The translations under genes and the position numbers were made by a program. Source: Laetmonice hystrix (Eukaryota). From it: a stretch of DNA of 64,000 nt. Every line of letters starts with the position of its first letter. The first letter of the stretch is position 1. The notes beneath the pieces were generated by a model. The model was not told the origin of the DNA. It was given only the letters and a program-made list of their open reading frames with translations, and searched no databases. Of the stretch, positions 644 to 57,783 are shown piece by piece. The stretch lies in the NCBI GenBank assembly GCA_965235115.1, contig OZ249447.1:22196001-22260000 (forward strand), in the 5' to 3' direction.

Positions 644-780
644 GAGACATTAAGCTGACCGGGTTAATGACCTTTAAATGAGGAGACGTTATCAGCTAGC
701 CCCTGCCGGGGCCTCTACCCCACCACACCAGTGGTGTGTAATCAGTTGCTGGCGCGCAGCGCAGGAGTTTAGACTGGCTT
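644..780 (+). repeat. Terminal repeat A1 (137 bp)
   Basis: GAGACATTAAGC...AGACTGGCTT, identical by eye to 4808-4944. Confidence 0.95.
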
Positions 781-808
781 TCGTCTTGCTCCATCCCGTA
801 CTTTGAAA

Positions 809-1993
809 ATGGCTGAATTTGACTTTGCTACGTGGTCTTCAGACAATGGTTTAAAAAGGAAGACAAAAGACGCTCTGACCAAACAGGACTTTACGGGCAA
901 GAACGCTCTCCTACTTATGACGCCTGGAGATGTTGCGGCCCTGGACATCACGGGCGGTCAGGCCAGGGTGCTCCGTGAGGGGCTGAAACAACTTGGAAAC
1001 CCAGCTTTCCCTCAAACCGCTGCCGTGGCCACTCAAGCCACTGCCGTGGCCTCTCCAGCCAATGCCACTCAAGCCACTGCCGTCGTCCATCAGGTTGGAA
1101 ACCAGCCGGGTCCTTCACGGCCTGATACTTCTGTGGGCGCCGCCGATCATGACGAGGGATCACGTCCTCCCATGGATATCGGTGGACAGTCAGAGGAGGA
1201 ATTACGGAGGGCAGGTGAAATTCTCGACAGAATACTCAGGGAGCCGGGCACGGACCTGCCACCACGTGAGCGCCAGGAGGACGGTAGGGCCCGCCCCGTG
1301 ACGGACGGCGGTCATAGGCCTACTGTAGCTAGGGCCTCAGCCTCCGATAGCTACGACCCCCAGGCGGTCCTCACCATTAGGGCAACTTCACGCAAGGCTC
1401 TACACGCCAAGGACTTCGTCCCGGAGCAGGTGAAGCAGCGGCTTCTAAGAAAGAGGAGAGAGACGCTACGCTGGGTGGAGACCGATGATGGTGCGTTCAC
1501 CATCCAGGCGGACGACCAGGGTCTCGCCTACCTGACTCAGGCGGAATGGGGAGCGGCTAATATGCGGATAATGTCGCATCTCCTTGGTACAGGTGAACTG
1601 GAGAGGGGGCGTGTCGAGGATTACATGGCCTATACAGTTACAGTTCATGAACTGGCGTCCCGTTACGACTGGGCGTCGGTTCTGGACTACGACACCAGGT
1701 ACCGGGAACAGCAGGCGGAACACGGCCACCGCTGGGGTACCCCTGCGCGACACCTGGAGTCACTCCTCCTGATGCCCAAGCGCCGGGATCAGCAACCAAC
1801 GCAGGCGTCCCAGGGGCGCCAACACCAGCGCGGGAAACTAGGTGGCAGGGCTCCCAGGATCCCTAGCACCACGGGACAGCAACAGGGGCCCAATGGCCAA
1901 GCCGCGGCCGTGGAACCATGCCGCCAGTTCCTAACAAAAGGTGTGTGCTCCTTTGGTGAGAGGTGCCGCTTCAGTCACGTCAACCAGGCCTAG
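809..1993 (+). CDS. gag: Gag-like ORF1 (394 aa) with SAM-like N-terminus and C-terminal CCCH zinc finger
   Basis: ATG at 809 in AAAATGG context (the track start at 803 is a TTG). Core motif DWASVLDYDTRYREQQA...RWG resembles DIRS/Ngaro Gag. C-x8-C-x5-C-x3-H at 1919-1978. Ends at TAG 1991-1993. Confidence 0.9.
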   Translation: MAEFDFATWSSDNGLKRKTKDALTKQDFTGKNALLLMTPGDVAALDITGGQARVLREGLKQLGNPAFPQTAAVATQATAVASPANATQATAVVHQVGNQPGPSRPDTSVGAADHDEGSRPPMDIGGQSEEELRRAGEILDRILREPGTDLPPRERQEDGRARPVTDGGHRPTVARASASDSYDPQAVLTIRATSRKALHAKDFVPEQVKQRLLRKRRETLRWVETDDGAFTIQADDQGLAYLTQAEWGAANMRIMSHLLGTGELERGRVEDYMAYTVTVHELASRYDWASVLDYDTRYREQQAEHGHRWGTPARHLESLLLMPKRRDQQPTQASQGRQHQRGKLGGRAPRIPSTTGQQQGPNGQAAAVEPCRQFLTKGVCSFGERCRFSHVNQA

Positions 1994-3562
1994 GAGACGT
2001 GCCGCTCAGCACACGACGGCTCGCTCCGCCTCGAGGCCTGGAAGCGGCGCCTCGATCCATCGGACAAAGACTATGACTTTATTGTTGATGGAGTCCAAAA
2101 TGGCTTCCGGATTACGAACAAAGACACTACCGGGGCAGGAGCCTTCTATTATAATCACAAATCTGTGCTCGGCCGCAACAAGCCAGTGGTAGAGGCACAG
2201 ATTAAGAAGGAACTCATTAACGGCCGTTATAAAGTTGTGCAAGAGCGGCCAACGATAACGTCAGCCCTTGGGGCCATCATTAAAGATGATACGGGCAAGG
2301 TCCGGCTTCTCCACGACGCGTCGAGACCATATGGCCGGGCCCTTAACGACTTTGCCCTCAACAAACGGTTTTCTTACCAGACTCTTTACCAGGCAACCTC
2401 ATCACTAAGGAGAGGTTTCTGGCTAGCCAAGCTGGATTTGTCCGAGGCTTATCGGAGTGTAAAGCTACATCCAGCAGACCATCACCTGGCAGGGCTACAA
2501 TGGACTTTTAATGGCAGTCAAAAACCAGTTTATCTCCAGGATCTGCGGCTGCCTTTCGGCGCTCGTCTGTCGGCGGGCATCTTCAACACACTGACCCAGG
2601 CTGTCAGGCGCATCATGGCCCGGGAAGGCTTTCCGTGCATGGTTGTTTATCTTGATGACTTTTTAATTTGGGCACCCGATAAGGCCTCCTGTCTCCGAGC
2701 TCTGAACCACCTGATGAGGCTAGTCAGAGAACTTGGCTTTGCCATTAACTATTCCAAGGTGGTCATGCCGACAACTTGCCTGGACTTTCTCGGTATCAAC
2801 ATCGATACAGTTCGTTACGTCTTATCTCTGCCACAGAGCAAATTAGCCCAGCTACGGTCCGAGCTAATGAAGGTGGCTGGCATGAGGACAGTAAGCAAAC
2901 AGCTGTTGCAGTCGCTGGCTGGCCGCTTGAACTGGGCGGCGCAGGTCATCCACGGAGGGCGGCCACATATGAGACGTATCATTGACCGGATTAACACCCT
3001 GCAGCGTCAGACTCATCACACTCGTGTGAACAAGTGTATTCTCAGTGACATTCAATGGTGGTTAGATTTTCTTGATGTGTTTAATGGCATCGCGCCCATC
3101 ATCGAATATCGGCGTTACACACCTGTACAAATCGACGCGTGTCAGACGGGGGCAGGAGGTTATTATAACGGGCAATGGTATCACTTAAAATGGCGGGACT
3201 GGCCGGACACCGAACAGCTCCACATCAATATGAAGGAAGTTTTGGCGCTCGAACCAGCGTGTTGGTTGTGGGGACCTCAGTGGAGAGATCGGCAGGTAAA
3301 TGTCTACAGTGACAACACCACAGCCGTCTCAATCATAAACAAAGGATCCACTAAAGATCCCCGGATCATGAAATCCCTCAGGAATATCTTCTGGTTTTCG
3401 GCCATATACAACTTCCGCATCAAAGCGTGTTACTATCCAGGCTATCGTAACACCCTGGCCGATGCTGCCTCGCGCCTGAGTGAACCAGGAGGGTCTGCGC
3501 GTTTAGAGCGGGAGCTGGATCGCCTATTGCCAGCGGCGCGATATGGATGTGCAGCAGCTTGA
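1994..3562 (+). CDS. pol: Reverse transcriptase / RNase H (522 codons plus stop; open from immediately after the gag TAG, longer than the ORF-track call)
   Basis: No stop 1994-3559. N-terminal W..L...D.DFIVDGVQNGFRI motif; RT motifs LDLSEAY, LPFG and YLDD (2648-2659); RNase H acidic residues in IDAC, MKE, YSDN and NTLADAASR. Confidence 0.93.
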   Translation, partial: ETCRSAHDGSLRLEAWKRRLDPSDKDYDFIVDGVQNGFRITNKDTTGAGAFYYNHKSVLGRNKPVVEAQIKKELINGRYKVVQERPTITSALGAIIKDDTGKVRLLHDASRPYGRALNDFALNKRFSYQTLYQATSSLRRGFWLAKLDLSEAYRSVKLHPADHHLAGLQWTFNGSQKPVYLQDLRLPFGARLSAGIFNTLTQAVRRIMAREGFPCMVVYLDDFLIWAPDKASCLRALNHLMRLVRELGFAINYSKVVMPTTCLDFLGINIDTVRYVLSLPQSKLAQLRSELMKVAGMRTVSKQLLQSLAGRLNWAAQVIHGGRPHMRRIIDRINTLQRQTHHTRVNKCILSDIQWWLDFLDVFNGIAPIIEYRRYTPVQIDACQTGAGGYYNGQWYHLKWRDWPDTEQLHINMKEVLALEPACWLWGPQWRDRQVNVYSDNTTAVSIINKGSTKDPRIMKSLRNIFWFSAIYNFRIKACYYPGYRNTLADAASRLSEPGGSARLERELDRLLPAARYGCAAA

Positions 3563-4541
3563 TGGTCTTGTGTCATCCTACCAGGAGATGGCCTTTGCTG
3601 ACAATACAAAAAAGGCCTATCGGACTCATAGACGCTCCTATTTGTCATTTTGCGCCAGCCTTGGATATGCTCCTGTTCCAGCCACCCCTATGTTGTTGTG
3701 CAGGTATGTCGCTTACCTGTCAACCAGGCTTCGTTATAATTCCGTCAAGCAGTACCTGAACATTGTCTCACTCATCCATAAGGAGCGAGGTGTGCCTAGT
3801 CCTTTAGAGAACTGTTTCCCGTTGTCCCTTACGTTGAGGGGTATCCGCCGCTCGTTAGGAGATCGAGTGACACGTAAAGCACCCATCACTCCTCGTCACC
3901 TGTATGCGATACTCAGGGGACTGAATATTCGGTTACCGAGGGATGCTGCGACTTTTTCGGCGTGCCTCCTGATGTTTTACGGCCTGCTGCGCAGATCCAA
4001 CGTTCTGCCTCCTGCTGGGGGCGGTTTTGATCCCAGTCGACACCTGCGTAGATCAGATGTCACCTTTACGCAACGAGGAGCCAAGCTGTTTCTTCGCTGG
4101 TCCAAAACGGATCAGTTCAGATCGAGGCCCAGGGTCATCCCCTACCCGCGGATAAGGGGACACCCTCTCTGTCCAACCCAGGCGCTTTTTCACGCGTTGT
4201 CCCTCACCCCGGATGCGCCATTGGACGGGCCGTTATTTGTTACCAGCGCTCGCCAAGCTTCGCCCCTTTCTCCTGAGATGTTCTCCAGGACATTCCTTTC
4301 GGCTTTAAAGAATTCTTCAGCTGACACAGAGGGCTTAGCCAGCCATTCGTTTCGGCGCGGAGGTGCAGTATTCTTGTGGAGCTCGGTGGGCCTGGATGAG
4401 GGGCGCATTCGTGAGCTAGGGGACTGGGCTTCTTCGGCGTATACAGCTTATGTAATCAGTGACGAGCAGGGACTCTCGCATACCTTAACTGCCATGGCCG
4501 AGGCCCTACCTTCGCCTGCCGAGCTCAGCGACGTTCCCTAG
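3543..4541 (+). CDS. Tyrosine recombinase (332 aa)
   Basis: N-terminal T.KAY...YLSFC binding domain; catalytic R (LLRRSN), K (SKTD), H-x-x-R (SHSFRRG), W (GDW) and Y (AYTAY). Overlaps pol by 20 nt in another frame. Confidence 0.95.
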   Translation: MDVQQLDGLVSSYQEMAFADNTKKAYRTHRRSYLSFCASLGYAPVPATPMLLCRYVAYLSTRLRYNSVKQYLNIVSLIHKERGVPSPLENCFPLSLTLRGIRRSLGDRVTRKAPITPRHLYAILRGLNIRLPRDAATFSACLLMFYGLLRRSNVLPPAGGGFDPSRHLRRSDVTFTQRGAKLFLRWSKTDQFRSRPRVIPYPRIRGHPLCPTQALFHALSLTPDAPLDGPLFVTSARQASPLSPEMFSRTFLSALKNSSADTEGLASHSFRRGGAVFLWSSVGLDEGRIRELGDWASSAYTAYVISDEQGLSHTLTAMAEALPSPAELSDVP

Positions 4542-4570
4542 TCCTACCCCTACAGACTTGTGTGGAGTTT

Positions 4571-4807
4571 GGAGTACGCTCATTTGGGTCAGCGCGAACA
4601 TTTATTTTACTGTGTGACTTTCTCCATATCCTATGTCATGTACGCAAATCATGCTTAACATGTTTCTATCATTTGATAGTGCGCCAATTTTGTTTAACAT
4701 GTTTCCATGTTGTCAGCGCGCGCGCAGCACTTATTATTGTAGTTAGTGTGTCAATAAATTTGACCCGGTTTTCTTCTCCAGCTCTGTGTTGTAGTCTCTG
4801 AATTTAA
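4571..4807 (+). repeat. Repeat B1 (237 bp)
   Basis: GGAGTACGCTC...TCTGAATTTAA, identical by eye to 4993-5229; abuts A2 directly. Confidence 0.95.
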
Positions 4808-4944
4808 GAGACATTAAGCTGACCGGGTTAATGACCTTTAAATGAGGAGACGTTATCAGCTAGCCCCTGCCGGGGCCTCTACCCCACCACACCAGTGGTG
4901 TGTAATCAGTTGCTGGCGCGCAGCGCAGGAGTTTAGACTGGCTT
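4808..4944 (+). repeat. Internal repeat A2 (137 bp)
   Basis: Copy of 644-780. Confidence 0.95.
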
Positions 4945-4992
4945 CCACCACCCACCCCTCCTCCAGATGAACTTTTCTTGCAGGGGAGGGGA

Positions 4993-5229
4993 GGAGTACG
5001 CTCATTTGGGTCAGCGCGAACATTTATTTTACTGTGTGACTTTCTCCATATCCTATGTCATGTACGCAAATCATGCTTAACATGTTTCTATCATTTGATA
5101 GTGCGCCAATTTTGTTTAACATGTTTCCATGTTGTCAGCGCGCGCGCAGCACTTATTATTGTAGTTAGTGTGTCAATAAATTTGACCCGGTTTTCTTCTC
5201 CAGCTCTGTGTTGTAGTCTCTGAATTTAA
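4993..5229 (+). repeat. Terminal repeat B2 (237 bp)
   Basis: Copy of 4571-4807. Confidence 0.95.
5175..5180 (+). terminator. Putative polyadenylation signal in B2 (also 4753-4758 in B1)
   Basis: AATAAA followed by a T/GT-rich tract, about 50 bp before the element end. Confidence 0.5.
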
Positions 5230-19339: not shown

Positions 19340-19403
19340 TATACCGACACCGAAGACGCTCACTTACTCACAAACAAATCCCGCCGTGTAACGGGACCTG
19401 CTG

Positions 19404-19663
19404 GGCCCGGTTTTTTTGTTTACTTTTTCACCGTGAGCAAGGGTGAGCTGAGCTGAGCAAGGGTGAGCAGAAGCTCATGCTCACTGTTTTGCTCCCGTTT
19501 TAGTTTTTTTGGTGTTTTTCCGTGAGCTTGCTCACCATGAGCACGCCTCATGGAAAAAAGCAACCCAAAAATACACGAAAACGATGAGAATGAGCTCATG
19601 CTCACCCTTGCTCAGCTCAGCTCACCCTTGCTCACGGTGGAAAAGAAACAAAAAAACCGGGCC
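19404..19663. mobile_element. 260-bp foldback MITE, PIF/Harbinger-like termini
   Basis: About 75-bp imperfect inverted arms starting GGCCCGGTTTTTTT, with internal TGAGCAAGGGTGAGC subrepeats; flanked by CTG and CAG. Confidence 0.75.
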
Positions 19664-20206
19664 CAGACCCACCCGAACCCTCCCCTGAATGCCTATAGGA
19701 ACGAACCCCGCACCACGTTGACCCTAGACCGATTATTAAACACCTTGCGAACAGAGGGCTAAGTGGAGTAAACCGTACACGGATTACTGCCAGGCAGGCG
19801 AATTACACAACCGAAAAAGAAAATCAGTTGTTGGACTAATTCCGTTGGAGCTGGTTCAGGGGGCCAAATGAATTTGGGAGCGTCGGTGACAGTGATTGTA
19901 GTTTCAGCGGCCATTGAATGTCGAAGAATGGAATGCTGATCGAATTAGAGACATGGGAGACGGGCAAATGATACAAGTTAGAAGGCGGTGTAATTAGTTG
20001 GATGATGAATCCAGTTGAGGAGCTGACGGAGCACCAGTTGCGGGCCCCCACCAACTGACAAGGAATGGGATTGTCAAGTGTTGGCCGTGAAATGGATCAC
20101 ACCCTCTTCAATGAGAAACCTGAGAGGAGGCAGAAGCCGTTTTTTAATTGCTCTTGTCATGGAAGGGCCATGGAAGGAACCGATGGAGGTGTAGCTGGGA
20201 GTTATA

Positions 20207-47400: not shown

Positions 47401-48412
47401 TGGCCGTGTTATGGCCTCGGCTGAACACGACCACCAGTTGTCAATGCCAGACCTCCATACACTCTTCACTTGAACAGCTGCTTGACCTTTAAGCGGACCT
47501 CCTCTCAGAGAAATACAAAGAGTACCCCCAAAAAAATCCTCTGCCGCTCGGACTAAAATACTCTCGTATTTCAGTAACAGAAATAAGACTTTTTGGAGAG
47601 GTTCCTTTGTCTCAGTCAGATCAGAGAACATTAAATAGAACGGGTTCGTTACTGAGGAATCGATGTCAACTTTTCTTAGTGTGGAACTCTCCACTCAGAA
47701 GATGATGGCCAGCCTCATTATCGTGCCACCACCAGAGGGCCACCGCTACGTCAGGCATCACCATGGCAACAAGTGGCAGGAAAGTATGTGGTAATGAAGA
47801 GCCGAGAACTCTCTAGATCTTGAGGAGCTGGTGAAAATGAGGAGATCATTTAAGGGACTGTTCCGGAGGACCCTTTCTTGAAAAAAGTATGCTTGACGAC
47901 GGTGCAAGATTTGATTTAGCGTGGAAGTGAACGGTTCGAATTAAAGTTTCTCGGATAAAACTTAAGTTACACTTTGGAGTTTGCACTAGTAGTCAGAGAT
48001 ACATTTTCAATGAGATGAGAAATATTTTTCCAATAGTTGATTCCTTCATTACGTCAGAGGTGAGAGTAGCAGTATCATTTTGTTTGGAATTGGGAGCTGA
48101 AGTTCTTCAGTAATCGAAGACAAAGGAGGCCTTCCTTACATTCACTGGTGAGGGTTCCTGGACAAATGAGGCCCTTGTGATAACCGTAACAAATTGAACA
48201 GGACCTGCTCTATGATAGGGAGATCCAGTGGTGAGGTCACAGCGTTTACCTATTCATAATCGAGTGAATCAGATATGGCAGAAGGAGCACTCAGAGGGTG
48301 TGGGCTGGTCCAAGTGTAACCTGAAGCAGGATGGCCTTTAGCATCGATCTTTTATTGGACGTATGTGCCAGGATAATGGACTCATGTAGCCGCTTATTCT
48401 CATAGCAACCTG

Positions 48413-48538
48413 GGCCCGGTTCACAAACAAAGTCAAGTCAATTTTAATTGACTTGAAATCCATTTTAACCAATCAGATTCAAGTAAAATTGACTTCAAGT
48501 CAATTAAAATTGACTTGACTTTGTTTGTGAACCGGGCC
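48413..48538. mobile_element. 126-bp Harbinger-like MITE, perfect 45-bp TIRs, CTG TSD
   Basis: GGCCCGGTTCACAAACAAAGTCAAGTCAATTTTAATTGACTTGAA and its exact reverse complement around a 36-bp core; CTG at 48410-48412 and 48539-48541. Confidence 0.88.
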
Positions 48539-50912
48539 CTGAACACACTAACAACACATACCAAACTAGCCACTTCTGGCTTTCCAGTATATTTATTTTC
48601 ATTTATAAAGTATTACTAAATGGTAAAATCTCCAGGAGATATGTGTAAGCGATCGAGATTAGGCTTAGGAGCAGCTAGGGCTAGGTACAGTGTAGGGGTT
48701 AGAAATCGGTTCAGGGCCTGGAAGGAATGGATTACTTCTTCCCACCAAATTTTGTGGGAACGTTACATGGAGATCTGCCTATTTATAAAAAATTGCGAAT
48801 TTTTATAAAAGTGGTACCGTAACTTGCTCTTTCAACAGTAAGACTATTAGTTCAAGTCAGTGAACTGCCGTATCACTCCCATACCATAGCGTTACGAAAA
48901 CGGAAGTCCTTCCACCGGACTATTCGGCAGCCTACTGACTTGTGCCAGACTATTGGTGCGTTTTTCTGACATGCAAATGTTGTAACTTTGTGGAAATACA
49001 ATTACACTTACTGCTTGACGTGGAGTTGATATCTGTCTCACTGTCTATTGAGTCGGAACACGTGAATATGAAGCCGACTGACCGTGTTGGGAGTAGTTTG
49101 TTGTCAGAGTTTGTGAAAGGTGCAGCATTCAGCGCGACCACGGGGCCCAGCTGATTGAGAGGAGACGTGAGGTAGCACAGAGTAGACCGTATCATATGAA
49201 GGGTCTGCTGCCGGGACTGGTAATAGCAGCTAGTCAAGTGTTCATGTATTATACACAAGTGTCAGGTCCTTCTAACAGTAGCAGTGGGACTGATTGATGT
49301 GATGATGGTAACACTGAGGTTTACAAACAACCAGGCCGCGAGCCGCCGCTCTGGTGGCTTCATAACGCACCCGTAACTGGCTTTGGGTCCTCGTCGACCC
49401 ATCACGGCATTATCCGGGAACTGGCGGGGGAGGCTTTAACAAACATTGCTAGCACGGAATGTCTCTAGGAACGCAACGGTAGAATGACTTGTGCTTCATC
49501 TGTAAACTGTAATCTGTGAACAAAAATATCAAAGGCAAGACAAACCTGGCGTTCAATGTTGGAAAACTGGAGGTATGCGTGATAATATGTGACCCACACC
49601 TACAGGATTGGTTGGGTTAAAGTCTAAAAGAGATCATGGATTTTGCCTTGCCTTTGTGAAAGATTTCTTTTCCATGTATTTTGGTTTTCTGTGGAATATT
49701 GAATGAACAAGAAAAAGAGGATCTCTCAGAAGAGATTTCGTGATATGGGATTTGATGTAGAGATCGTCAATACGAAGAAACGTCGCCTGCAGAAGTGGAG
49801 TAGTTGGCCGTTTCCGACATGAACGAGCTTCAGATGTGGCAGTGGAGCTGAAGAAGCTTTCGTCGATAGAAGCTGACGGGATGGTGCTGGTCGGTGGTGG
49901 TGAGCTTCCACAGCGACCACTAGCGTCGTGTTGAGAGCTCGTTGCCTCACCTGCTGCTGTCCACCACTTGACCGGTGGAGTGGACACGGGGAGGTCGCCG
50001 ATACCCCCCCCCCCCCCAACACCACCACCACCACCACCGCCACCACCACAGCGAGGAGAAGGAGGAGGCTTCGATCGCCTTGACACGGCTCTCGTGTGGG
50101 ATCCCCGGCCCGCCTGGTCCCCAGAGCGACCCTCGAGGCCTCGTCAGGAACTGCCTCTCCTGACCTCGCGCGGCCCTTTCCTGCTCTCAGGCCCCGTTAG
50201 GGCACGGCTCTTAAGATCCACAGCTTGCAGAGATGTATTGGTGTGCTAAGTGCTCTTGACGTTCAGCCAAATTAAGTGGCTGCCTAGAGTGGGACATAGA
50301 GTCGCAACTTGTGTGCCAAGATGGACTCGAAGGACATGTCCAGCAGGGCTCTTGTTTTACGACATGTCGCGGTTATCGTCACTCAGTCGTTTCGTTTTCT
50401 CACACAAGGGTTCCAGAAAATGTTCACCTGGTCAGCCTTGTCAAGTCTGTTGATGGCATTAAAGTTAAGGAGGGAGTTAAGTACAGACCATCCAAATTTA
50501 AAAGGCTAATAAATTAACATACGGTACATTACAATACAGTAATTGAAGATATCCAAGACTCTATTTCAACTAGCGTTGTAACATGTATCACTGGTTCACG
50601 GGTCCATGAAACATGTATTAAAGAAAACCCGAGACACGGGCAGTGGTTCTAGCCCTCCAGATTCAATACATTAACATACGGCAACCTTGTCGTATCCTTG
50701 GCCTCCAACACAAGAGGAGACCAGCAACCCCATCAAGTACTTGGATGACTTATTAATGATCATATCTCTACATCACCCCCACCTCCAACCCCATGTGGGC
50801 CACGTAGATACTTCTCTGAACGTCTTCCCACCCAGGCGGCCACATGAAAGGCTAAAGATCACAGTGTCCGACTGGTACATATTTATAGCTTTGTCCCAGA
50901 TTTCTCCAGTCT

Positions 50913-56157: not shown

Positions 56158-56332
56158 ACGGCGGCGGTTAAATCAGAGGTTAATTAGGAAAACGGTTGTT
56201 TGAGTTTAGAGAGGGGACCCTCTCAGGTGGGCTGACGTCGTGATCCAAGGTTGGAAGGAAAGTGGGTTGCTCGGTCGTGACGTTCTCCAGTTCAAGTTTG
56301 GCCTGTTGAACTCTCCTCGTGTTTACCTTCAG

Positions 56333-56458
56333 GGCCCGGTTCACAGGCAAAGTCAAGTAATTTTTTTTTAACTTGAAATCCATTTTAACCAATCGGATTC
56401 GAGTAAAATTGACTTCAAGCTCATTAGAATTGACTTGAGTTTGCTTGTGAACCGGGCA
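56333..56458. mobile_element. Second, diverged copy of the 126-bp Harbinger-like MITE
   Basis: Same length and orientation as 48413-48538, with scattered substitutions; flanked by CAG and CTG. Confidence 0.85.
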
Positions 56459-57783
56459 CTGGTCTCTTGGCGTGTGACGGTGAGGTTGTGCCGGGAGGCT
56501 TGAAAACAATACCGGGAGAGGGTCCCCTAATAATGTCGTTGGAGGGGGTGGAAGTGGAGGGGGGGGGGGGGGTTCACTGTGGAAGTGTGCCAACTAAAGC
56601 CTCCCGCCCACAGGGTCAAGTACCCCCTCTACTCTGTGGTTGCGCACAGGAAGGGGCGGTGCCCCACGGGGAAAATCTAACCTTTTAATCACCTGAATCT
56701 ATAGTGTTCACATGAAGAGCTCAGACCTGGTAATGATGGGGAATGGGAGGGCATGACCATCTATAGTCAAGTGGGATAGCCACAAGTAATAATGAACTGA
56801 GGCAACGTCCGTTCTGGCCTTCTGTCACGGCTGTCGTCCAGCGGGGAATGGAAATTTACCACAACAATTTGTGACCTTTGGTAAAATGGTAATTGGGGCG
56901 GAAGTATACTTTTACCTGTCTGATGGAGGAGAATTTGAAAGTTGTTTTTTTTTCACTTTGGATAATAAAATTTTCCCAGTGTTTTGATTTACCTACAATA
57001 GAGGTTCGTTTTCCAGCGATATTGTTCCCTGAAGTGCCGAACAGTGTTTTGATGACTATATTAGTTCACTTTAATTCATTAAGTGTTGACTGTGTTCATG
57101 TCGTTTGTTAAACATCAATACTGTGACTGATGACAGGAGAGTAGCAACCTGTCACAACAACGACACTGCCACAATTAGTACACCAACTGTTCCCTTGCAG
57201 CCCGCACTTAATGAAATTGTAAATTAAACTCTAACTGTGAACAATTAAGGTTTTCAACGCTGCACAATCGAGCTGAAAGTTTGTTGAGGATTGATAGCGG
57301 GTCGGAGTATGAGTTGGTTTGTCATTACTTGAGTTAATCAGACCCCCTCAGCGTGTTAATTCTGACAGCAGATCGGCGGAGGTTGTTAGGCTGCGTGTAC
57401 ATCTGGACAAGTTTCCGATAATTTGAGGGTTCCTGTATGATATCCGTACCTGGGGGCCACGTTAGGGGGCATTTGTTTTTACGGAGCATTGTGAGAGACA
57501 GCAGGGAGGACCAAGAGGACACTGTAAGGGTTTATCGTTTAAAGACCAGCACTCGATCCAAGCCGACTGTCGTTACTGTTTCGCCATCATTGTTAGGAAG
57601 GCAGGTGTTTGTGTTCGCCATGCTGGGGGTCTAACGGTAACAATCAGTAACGATTGTTCCACCCCTACAGTCAGACCAATGTTGGCGACTCCAGCGCTCA
57701 GACATCGTCACAGTGTCTCACAGCTTGCCCGAATCCCTAATCGTATCATCCCACATGCTATTATTGGTCTGTATAATCTTGAA

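Follow-up and report, generated by a model that had tools for sequence, protein, structure and literature searches.

The closest described parallels to the locus reported here come from retroviruses and LTR retrotransposons in which gag and pol share one frame across a stop codon. In the gammaretrovirus MLV, a UAG followed by G separates the two genes, and the readthrough signal is described as including an 8-nt purine-rich spacer with conserved G residues at positions 1 and 5 (accessible part of PMC13517186). The combination of UAG-G with a 3′ structure is classed as readthrough Type III, and adenines located 5′ of the stop favour readthrough (accessible part of PMC3159437). A single in-frame gag/pol stop is also present in the LTR retrotransposons Tj1, Tosmo1-3, Tcry1, and Tca2, the relatives of which rely mostly on -1 frameshifting (10.1101/2022.12.06.519325, available in part), and the portion of the literature available on Tj1 reports its stop to be essential for transposition. 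Among animal LTR elements, gag and pol lie at -1 in 28 of 51 (PMC5009743, available in part).

Less has been described for retrotransposons encoding a tyrosine recombinase (YR). Structural definitions separating Ngaro, PAT, and DIRS1 are given in the accessible text of PMC4157794, and frameshifting has been proposed for the YR ORF of Ngaro (Poulter and Butler 2015, as quoted in the available part of PMC13003380). We found no literature report of gag/pol readthrough or frameshifting in YR elements; key reviews and the original Ngaro papers lay outside the search, and prior mention is therefore possible. The accessible part of a mechanistic paper on DIRS-1 (PMC7192593) makes no mention of a frameshift, readthrough, or stop codon.

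The window, which is the whole 64-kb stretch of DNA analysed here, contains a YR retrotransposon spanning positions 644-5229, all features of which are on the forward strand. Its split direct repeats are ordered A1-B1-A2-B2, with the internal pair downstream of the YR gene: A1 (644-780, the left end of the element; 137 nt) is identical to A2 (4808-4944), and B1 (4571-4807; 237 nt) is identical to B2 (4993-5229, the right end). The gag ORF (809-1993) encodes 394 aa with a C-terminal CCCH zinc finger at aa 369-391, which was identified by Pfam (PF00642, E=1.2e-7) and is shared with homologues. The pol frame (1994-3562; 522 aa) contains a conserved N-terminal motif at aa 11-40, RT at aa 100-270 (Pfam RVT_1, E=2.6e-17), and RNase H at approximately aa 378-495, and ends approximately 30 aa past the latter. 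RNase H was assigned by homology, as PF17917 was detected in 7 of the 40 aligned Pol members and not in the window protein itself; residues D381, E415, D440, and D490 are conserved in this alignment. The tyrosine recombinase ORF (3543-4541) matched a PHROG integrase (E=7e-4) and Cre (E=3e-5), with no match in Pfam.

The element is of the Ngaro type, an assignment made by structure, as the trees built here held unnamed relatives only. A PAT-like class was ruled out by the absence of a methyltransferase domain (no Pfam match in the three ORFs or in the 40 Pol members), and a DIRS1-like class by the lack of inverted terminal repeats and an internal complementary region; no inverted repeats of at least 25 nt were found in 644-5229. 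There are also differences from described Ngaro elements. Xenopus Ngaro families have overlapping ORFs (accessible part of PMC9210276), whereas gag and pol of the window element abut in frame across a UAG. The window element lacks an extra SGNH hydrolase ORF, and its YR ORF lies at +1 to pol, in contrast to the -1 overlap given by Poulter and Butler (review quoted in the accessible text of PMC13003380). The ATG of the YR ORF precedes the pol stop by 17 nt, and this overlap (3543-3562) may reflect a restart or a second recoding step.

The exact identity of A1 with A2 and of B1 with B2, together with the three uninterrupted ORFs, suggests that the element is an intact copy that was inserted recently. 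No second copy was found within the window. The end of the left flank (639-643) matches the end of repeat B (4803-4807) over 5 nt but for one base, and no target-site duplication was seen at the element flanks, which is consistent with recombinase integration at a circle-junction-like site. The rest of the window (6590-64000) contains many minisatellite arrays (periods of 15-110 nt) and few long ORFs, as is usual in repeat-rich intronic or intergenic DNA of animals. Two short elements with inverted repeats, related to each other and approximately 130 nt long (48408-48543 and 56328-56463), are MITE-like, and a third inverted-repeat element with similar ends lies at 19401-19666.

The gag ORF runs from the ATG at 809-811 to the TAG at 1991-1993, ending in ...CRFSHVNQA, and beyond this stop no other interrupts the frame for 522 codons. 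We confirmed the coordinates on which the original prediction was based, namely a gag and an RT gene in one frame split by a single UAG, as well as its UAG-G context (GCC UAG GAG), which makes this UAG a candidate readthrough codon; a read-through product would be 917 residues long. A shared frame has by itself a one-in-three prior. The constraint on Pol ahead of its first in-frame ATG goes beyond chance. This ATG lies at 2615 (codon 208), downstream of the motifs LDLSEAY and LPFG and of the first catalytic Asp of RT, so the earlier claim that ATG initiation cannot yield a functional RT holds. Constraint on Pol begins 11 codons past the stop, that is, 197 codons ahead of this ATG: L11, W16, and L20 are invariant in all of the rows that cover those columns (22/22, 27/27, and 29/29, respectively). 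Of the 32 columns that are invariant among the 40 aligned Pol proteins, 21, including the catalytic D148, precede the ATG. The predicted starts of the 15 nearest Pol relatives are spread between -367 and 31. The conserved residues upstream of 2615 indicate that pol is translated in some way that does not depend on an ordinary AUG start.

None of six window translations, looked up exactly, was present in the protein collection, and the plasmid and phage collections gave no match. In a protein atlas, the matches fell into clusters without names, in which Mollusca was the most frequent phylum (9 records). Homologues of Gag comprised seven proteins from the Gag search plus P0211 and P0239 from the fused-query search, and the finger is intact in five of these nine (40-58% identity). 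All five terminate 4, 4, 4, 4, and 3 residues past the finger His, their ends lying at most one residue apart, and three of them share the H-V-x-x-A C-terminus of the window Gag; most of the five have no assignable Pol partner. The other four depart from the Gag frame ahead of the finger and appear, in our reading, to be frameshifted or deleted copies. As judged at the protein level, the stop position is thus conserved among Gag relatives, and the sense codon in other copies that would have told against the original prediction was not seen there.

This conservation bears on the possibility that the UAG is a nonsense mutation in what is naturally a single gag-pol ORF. Two copies of TATE, another YR group, are reported as a single ORF (accessible part of PMC6681497), and nonsense codons do arise in decayed copies, as in the related locus L007 described below. 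However, the Gag of all five relatives with an intact finger terminates at this position, and no in-frame gag-pol fusion was found among Pol relatives or fused-query matches. An in-frame fusion of the CCCH finger to Pol was present in none of the 60 Pol relatives with N-terminal extensions, and no whole Gag-Pol of the family stood at the head of the best 150 matches to the 917-residue query, the top match being Pol alone. Alignment of Gag with proteins of 705-2010 aa likewise detected no fused form among 8000 candidates, which carries little weight. The conserved Gag end and the lack of detected fusions make the nonsense reading very improbable.

Several proteins among the matches required separate consideration. 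P0153 and P0222 were rejected as Gag-Pol fusions, as their extensions lack an in-frame finger, and P0049, P0181, and P0255 look like single-copy frame-accident fusions. P0163, P0169, P0171, P0153, and similar proteins have 30-39% Pol identity and long N-terminal extensions without Gag similarity, and possibly derive from gag-less YR elements.

A scan of GTDB contigs yielded 39 candidate stretches, eight of which (L001-L008) encode relatives at 42-49% Pol identity. They are of eukaryote type, lie on short contigs within MAG bins, and presumably represent host DNA. The eight loci sit in three bacterial MAG assemblies, and P0049 and P0080 carry bacterial labels, probably owing to host contamination. 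In seven of the eight loci, pol occupies the -1 frame with respect to gag, and an in-phase X XXY YYZ heptamer is located 0-1 codon before the gag UAG. The heptamer is A AAA AAC in L001 (1692-1698), L004 (707-713), L005 (2482-2488), L006 (1663-1669), and L008 (1607-1613), and C CCA AAA in L002 (1457-1463) and L003 (1668-1674). The seven loci represent about three independent lineages, and 14 nt around the heptamer are invariant in 4/4 aligned sister loci, compared with a mean column identity of 79%. In four of the seven, the first pol-frame ATG lies only 36-82 codons into the conserved region. L003, L004, and L008 carry further frameshifts elsewhere. The remaining locus, L007, is in frame across UGA-C, but its gag carries a nonsense codon and its pol a frameshift; we therefore regard it as a decayed copy and reject it as separate evidence of an in-frame stop. 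The YR ORF is also at +1 in L001, L004, L005, L006, and L008, and at -1 in L003.

Ngaro-type relatives thus appear, from their junction sequences, to use -1 ribosomal frameshifting where gag meets pol, and the slippery sites in seven of the eight loci suggest recoding as the means by which the family produces Gag-Pol. Modest further support came from back-translation of the N-terminal extensions of Pol relatives, which recovered a finger in the -1 frame in 7/60 versus 2.7 in shuffles (4 versus 3.6 for the +1 frame). Minimum free energy folding 3′ of the slippery sites was without signal, z lying between -0.2 and +2.1. A candidate stem or pseudoknot was found at L004:723-761, with equivalents in L005, L006, and L008, approximately 9 nt past the heptamer; 29 of 32 cells pair, and no compensatory changes were detected among these four loci. 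A conserved Trp follows the UAG at 38-44 nt in the -1 loci versus 48 nt in the window, and the window and -1 junctions are therefore equivalent in position. The slippery heptamers in related YR loci are possibly a finding separate from that of the window junction.

The relatives also bear on another route to pol, in which termination at the UAG would be followed by re-initiation at an in-frame near-cognate codon, giving free RT/RNase H. An ACG with G at -3 is present two codons after the stop (1997-1999) and precedes all conserved Pol residues, the predicted starts fall at positions 0-4 in 3 of the 22 nearest Pol proteins, and the YR ORF, with its ATG shortly before the pol stop, has a stop/start-like layout. 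However, the two closest Pol relatives (74-75%) are called from position 31, which indicates that no standard start shared by them was selected further upstream; moreover, an initial M in protein databases may represent GTG or TTG. ATGs near the junction are sporadic in the -1 elements, being present in L005 and L008 and absent from their sisters L004 and L006, and the relatives point to a fused Gag-Pol. We consider re-initiation at the ACG, or at another near-cognate codon, unlikely. Both the ACG and the apparent -1 frameshifting of the relatives are points that go beyond the original prediction.

In contrast to the -1 junctions, the window junction has neither a slippery site nor an overlap. 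After the last -1-frame stop (1957), no in-phase heptamer closer than two mismatches to a slippery site is present, and the one heptamer with a single mismatch (1933) precedes this block. A slip-compatible tripeptide in the last six Gag residues is found in 0/6 (the window and its five Gag relatives) versus 7/7 of the -1 loci (Fisher p=0.0006, for rows that are related and not independent); the Gag P0002 has one such tripeptide, 22 residues from its end. Similarly, an extension of at least six residues upstream of the junction occurs in 0/22 of the nearest Pol proteins versus 14/83 in the surrounding clade (one-sided p=0.03, from a tree of 228 Pol rows and noisy gene-caller starts). Such extensions are expected to be absent where a stop borders pol, and a very short overlap would give the same pattern. 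Both comparisons are compatible, if indirectly, with a lineage whose pol is preceded by a stop. In the tree, the window copy belongs to a clade of eight rows (SH-aLRT 99) nested in a wider group that contains -1 elements; as this was a quick, midpoint-rooted tree, a change in the direction from frameshifting to readthrough is suggested rather than observed. The in-frame layout itself rests on the single window copy, and the nearest relative available as DNA has 49% Pol identity.

It is therefore necessary to ask whether a small indel or an assembly error, specific to this copy, put pol in frame, in which case the copy would make no RT. This would agree with the -1 position of pol in 7/8 relatives with DNA, with the common occurrence of indel-derived fusions and decayed copies among the matches, and with the single copy in the window. 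In addition, a short imperfect direct repeat straddles the stop (1958-2012; copies at 1958-1978 and 1994-2012). Imperfect direct repeats of this kind occur in 4/61 windows, two of which cover this same repeat. On the other hand, the slippery site is gone and yet the Gag end matches its relatives residue for residue, and one indel cannot do both. Nor can the C-termini of the five Gag relatives encode a canonical slippery site, and the copy is otherwise intact. A copy-specific accident is accordingly, in our view, rather unlikely. The repeat may have been left behind when the in-frame layout arose. Either of its copies could pair with the same downstream bases near 2043-2050.

With regard to signals in the RNA, the window junction resembles that of MLV in its in-frame UAG-G, its purine-rich first 8 nt (6/8 purines, with G1 present), and a predicted 3′ structure. 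Folding weakly suggests a run of three hairpins (1993-2092), and a 3′ RNA stimulator is thus possible: z is -2.81 when 110 nt beginning at the stop are folded and -1.29 when 80 nt are, and the junction ranks 8th of 183 windows. There are also differences from MLV. Position 5 of the spacer is C instead of G, the first predicted stem begins inside the stop codon without a spacer, and no supported H-type pseudoknot lies 8 nt downstream; in a crude pseudoknot search, the best junction score was equalled at 19% of the 1198 element positions. Rfam gave no matches. The stop is preceded by GCC, and 5′ adenines are absent. Thus, of the MLV-like signal invoked in the original prediction, the UAG-G context was borne out, whereas the MLV spacer was not and no pseudoknot stood out. 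Furthermore, no protease ORF follows the window stop, RT being directly downstream. The resemblance to Tj1, Tca2, and the other LTR elements is one of layout, in that a single in-frame stop occurs in an element whose relatives mostly appear to frameshift at -1; those elements bear an integrase and use UGA (UGA-CU in the fission-yeast set), whereas the window element bears a tyrosine recombinase and has UAG-G.

Pol might also be translated from an mRNA of its own, produced by a splice acceptor at the junction or by an internal promoter with non-AUG initiation, and the frame match would then be incidental. A study of Tca2 reportedly observed promoter-like activity that mimics readthrough. Candidate AG acceptors are present upstream of the conserved motif, one at the stop itself (TAG|G) and another ending at 2009. 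The mode by which Tca2 bypasses its stop has been called unclear (accessible part of PMC2194720). However, the candidate acceptors have only 44-56% pyrimidines upstream and competing AGs 3-6 nt away, an unspliced internal transcript would have no usable ATG before codon 208, and the relatives show ribosomal recoding signals at the same position. We judge a separate pol mRNA to be improbable, the nonsense mutation alone being a weaker alternative.

Readthrough of the UAG provides the best fit because it would keep both the fusion and the ratio that relatives appear to obtain by frameshifting. In the mechanism that we propose, the full-length RNA would be translated from the AUG at 809, and most ribosomes would terminate at the UAG, releasing the 394-aa Gag. 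A few would insert an amino acid at the UAG and continue, producing a 917-aa Gag-RT-RNase H at a low ratio to Gag, and readthrough would thereby take the role that -1 frameshifting appears to play at the corresponding junction of its Ngaro-type relatives. The original prediction had already posited Gag plus a minor fusion product of this kind, a proposal now strengthened by the conserved stop, the lack of an ATG start, and the signs of recoding in seven of the eight related loci. We infer frameshifting in the relatives, readthrough here, the in-frame layout in close relatives, and any RNA stimulator. On balance, it is probable, though by no means assured, that this sublineage uses UAG readthrough in place of -1 frameshifting. 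We put forward more tentatively, at somewhat short of even chances, the broader proposal that Ngaro-type YR retrotransposons generally recode a UAG-containing junction and that a whole clade (approximately 8-22 Pol clusters) has switched from -1 frameshifting to a UAG readthrough that is not MLV-like.

This locus and its relatives offer two short, testable signals at one junction that bear on how the RT gene of a YR element without a usable start codon is translated. The mechanism itself is already known from LTR retrotransposons, and the variant described here is its possible occurrence in a YR element. If true, a clade-wide switch would parallel those known from retroviruses and LTR elements, and would concern an element without a protease ORF to cut the fusion. 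If confirmed, readthrough at this junction would add one more animal UAG readthrough signal, would show that ATG-based annotations of Ngaro pol are truncated, and would extend the control of the Gag-Pol ratio by recoding to a third major group of retroelements.
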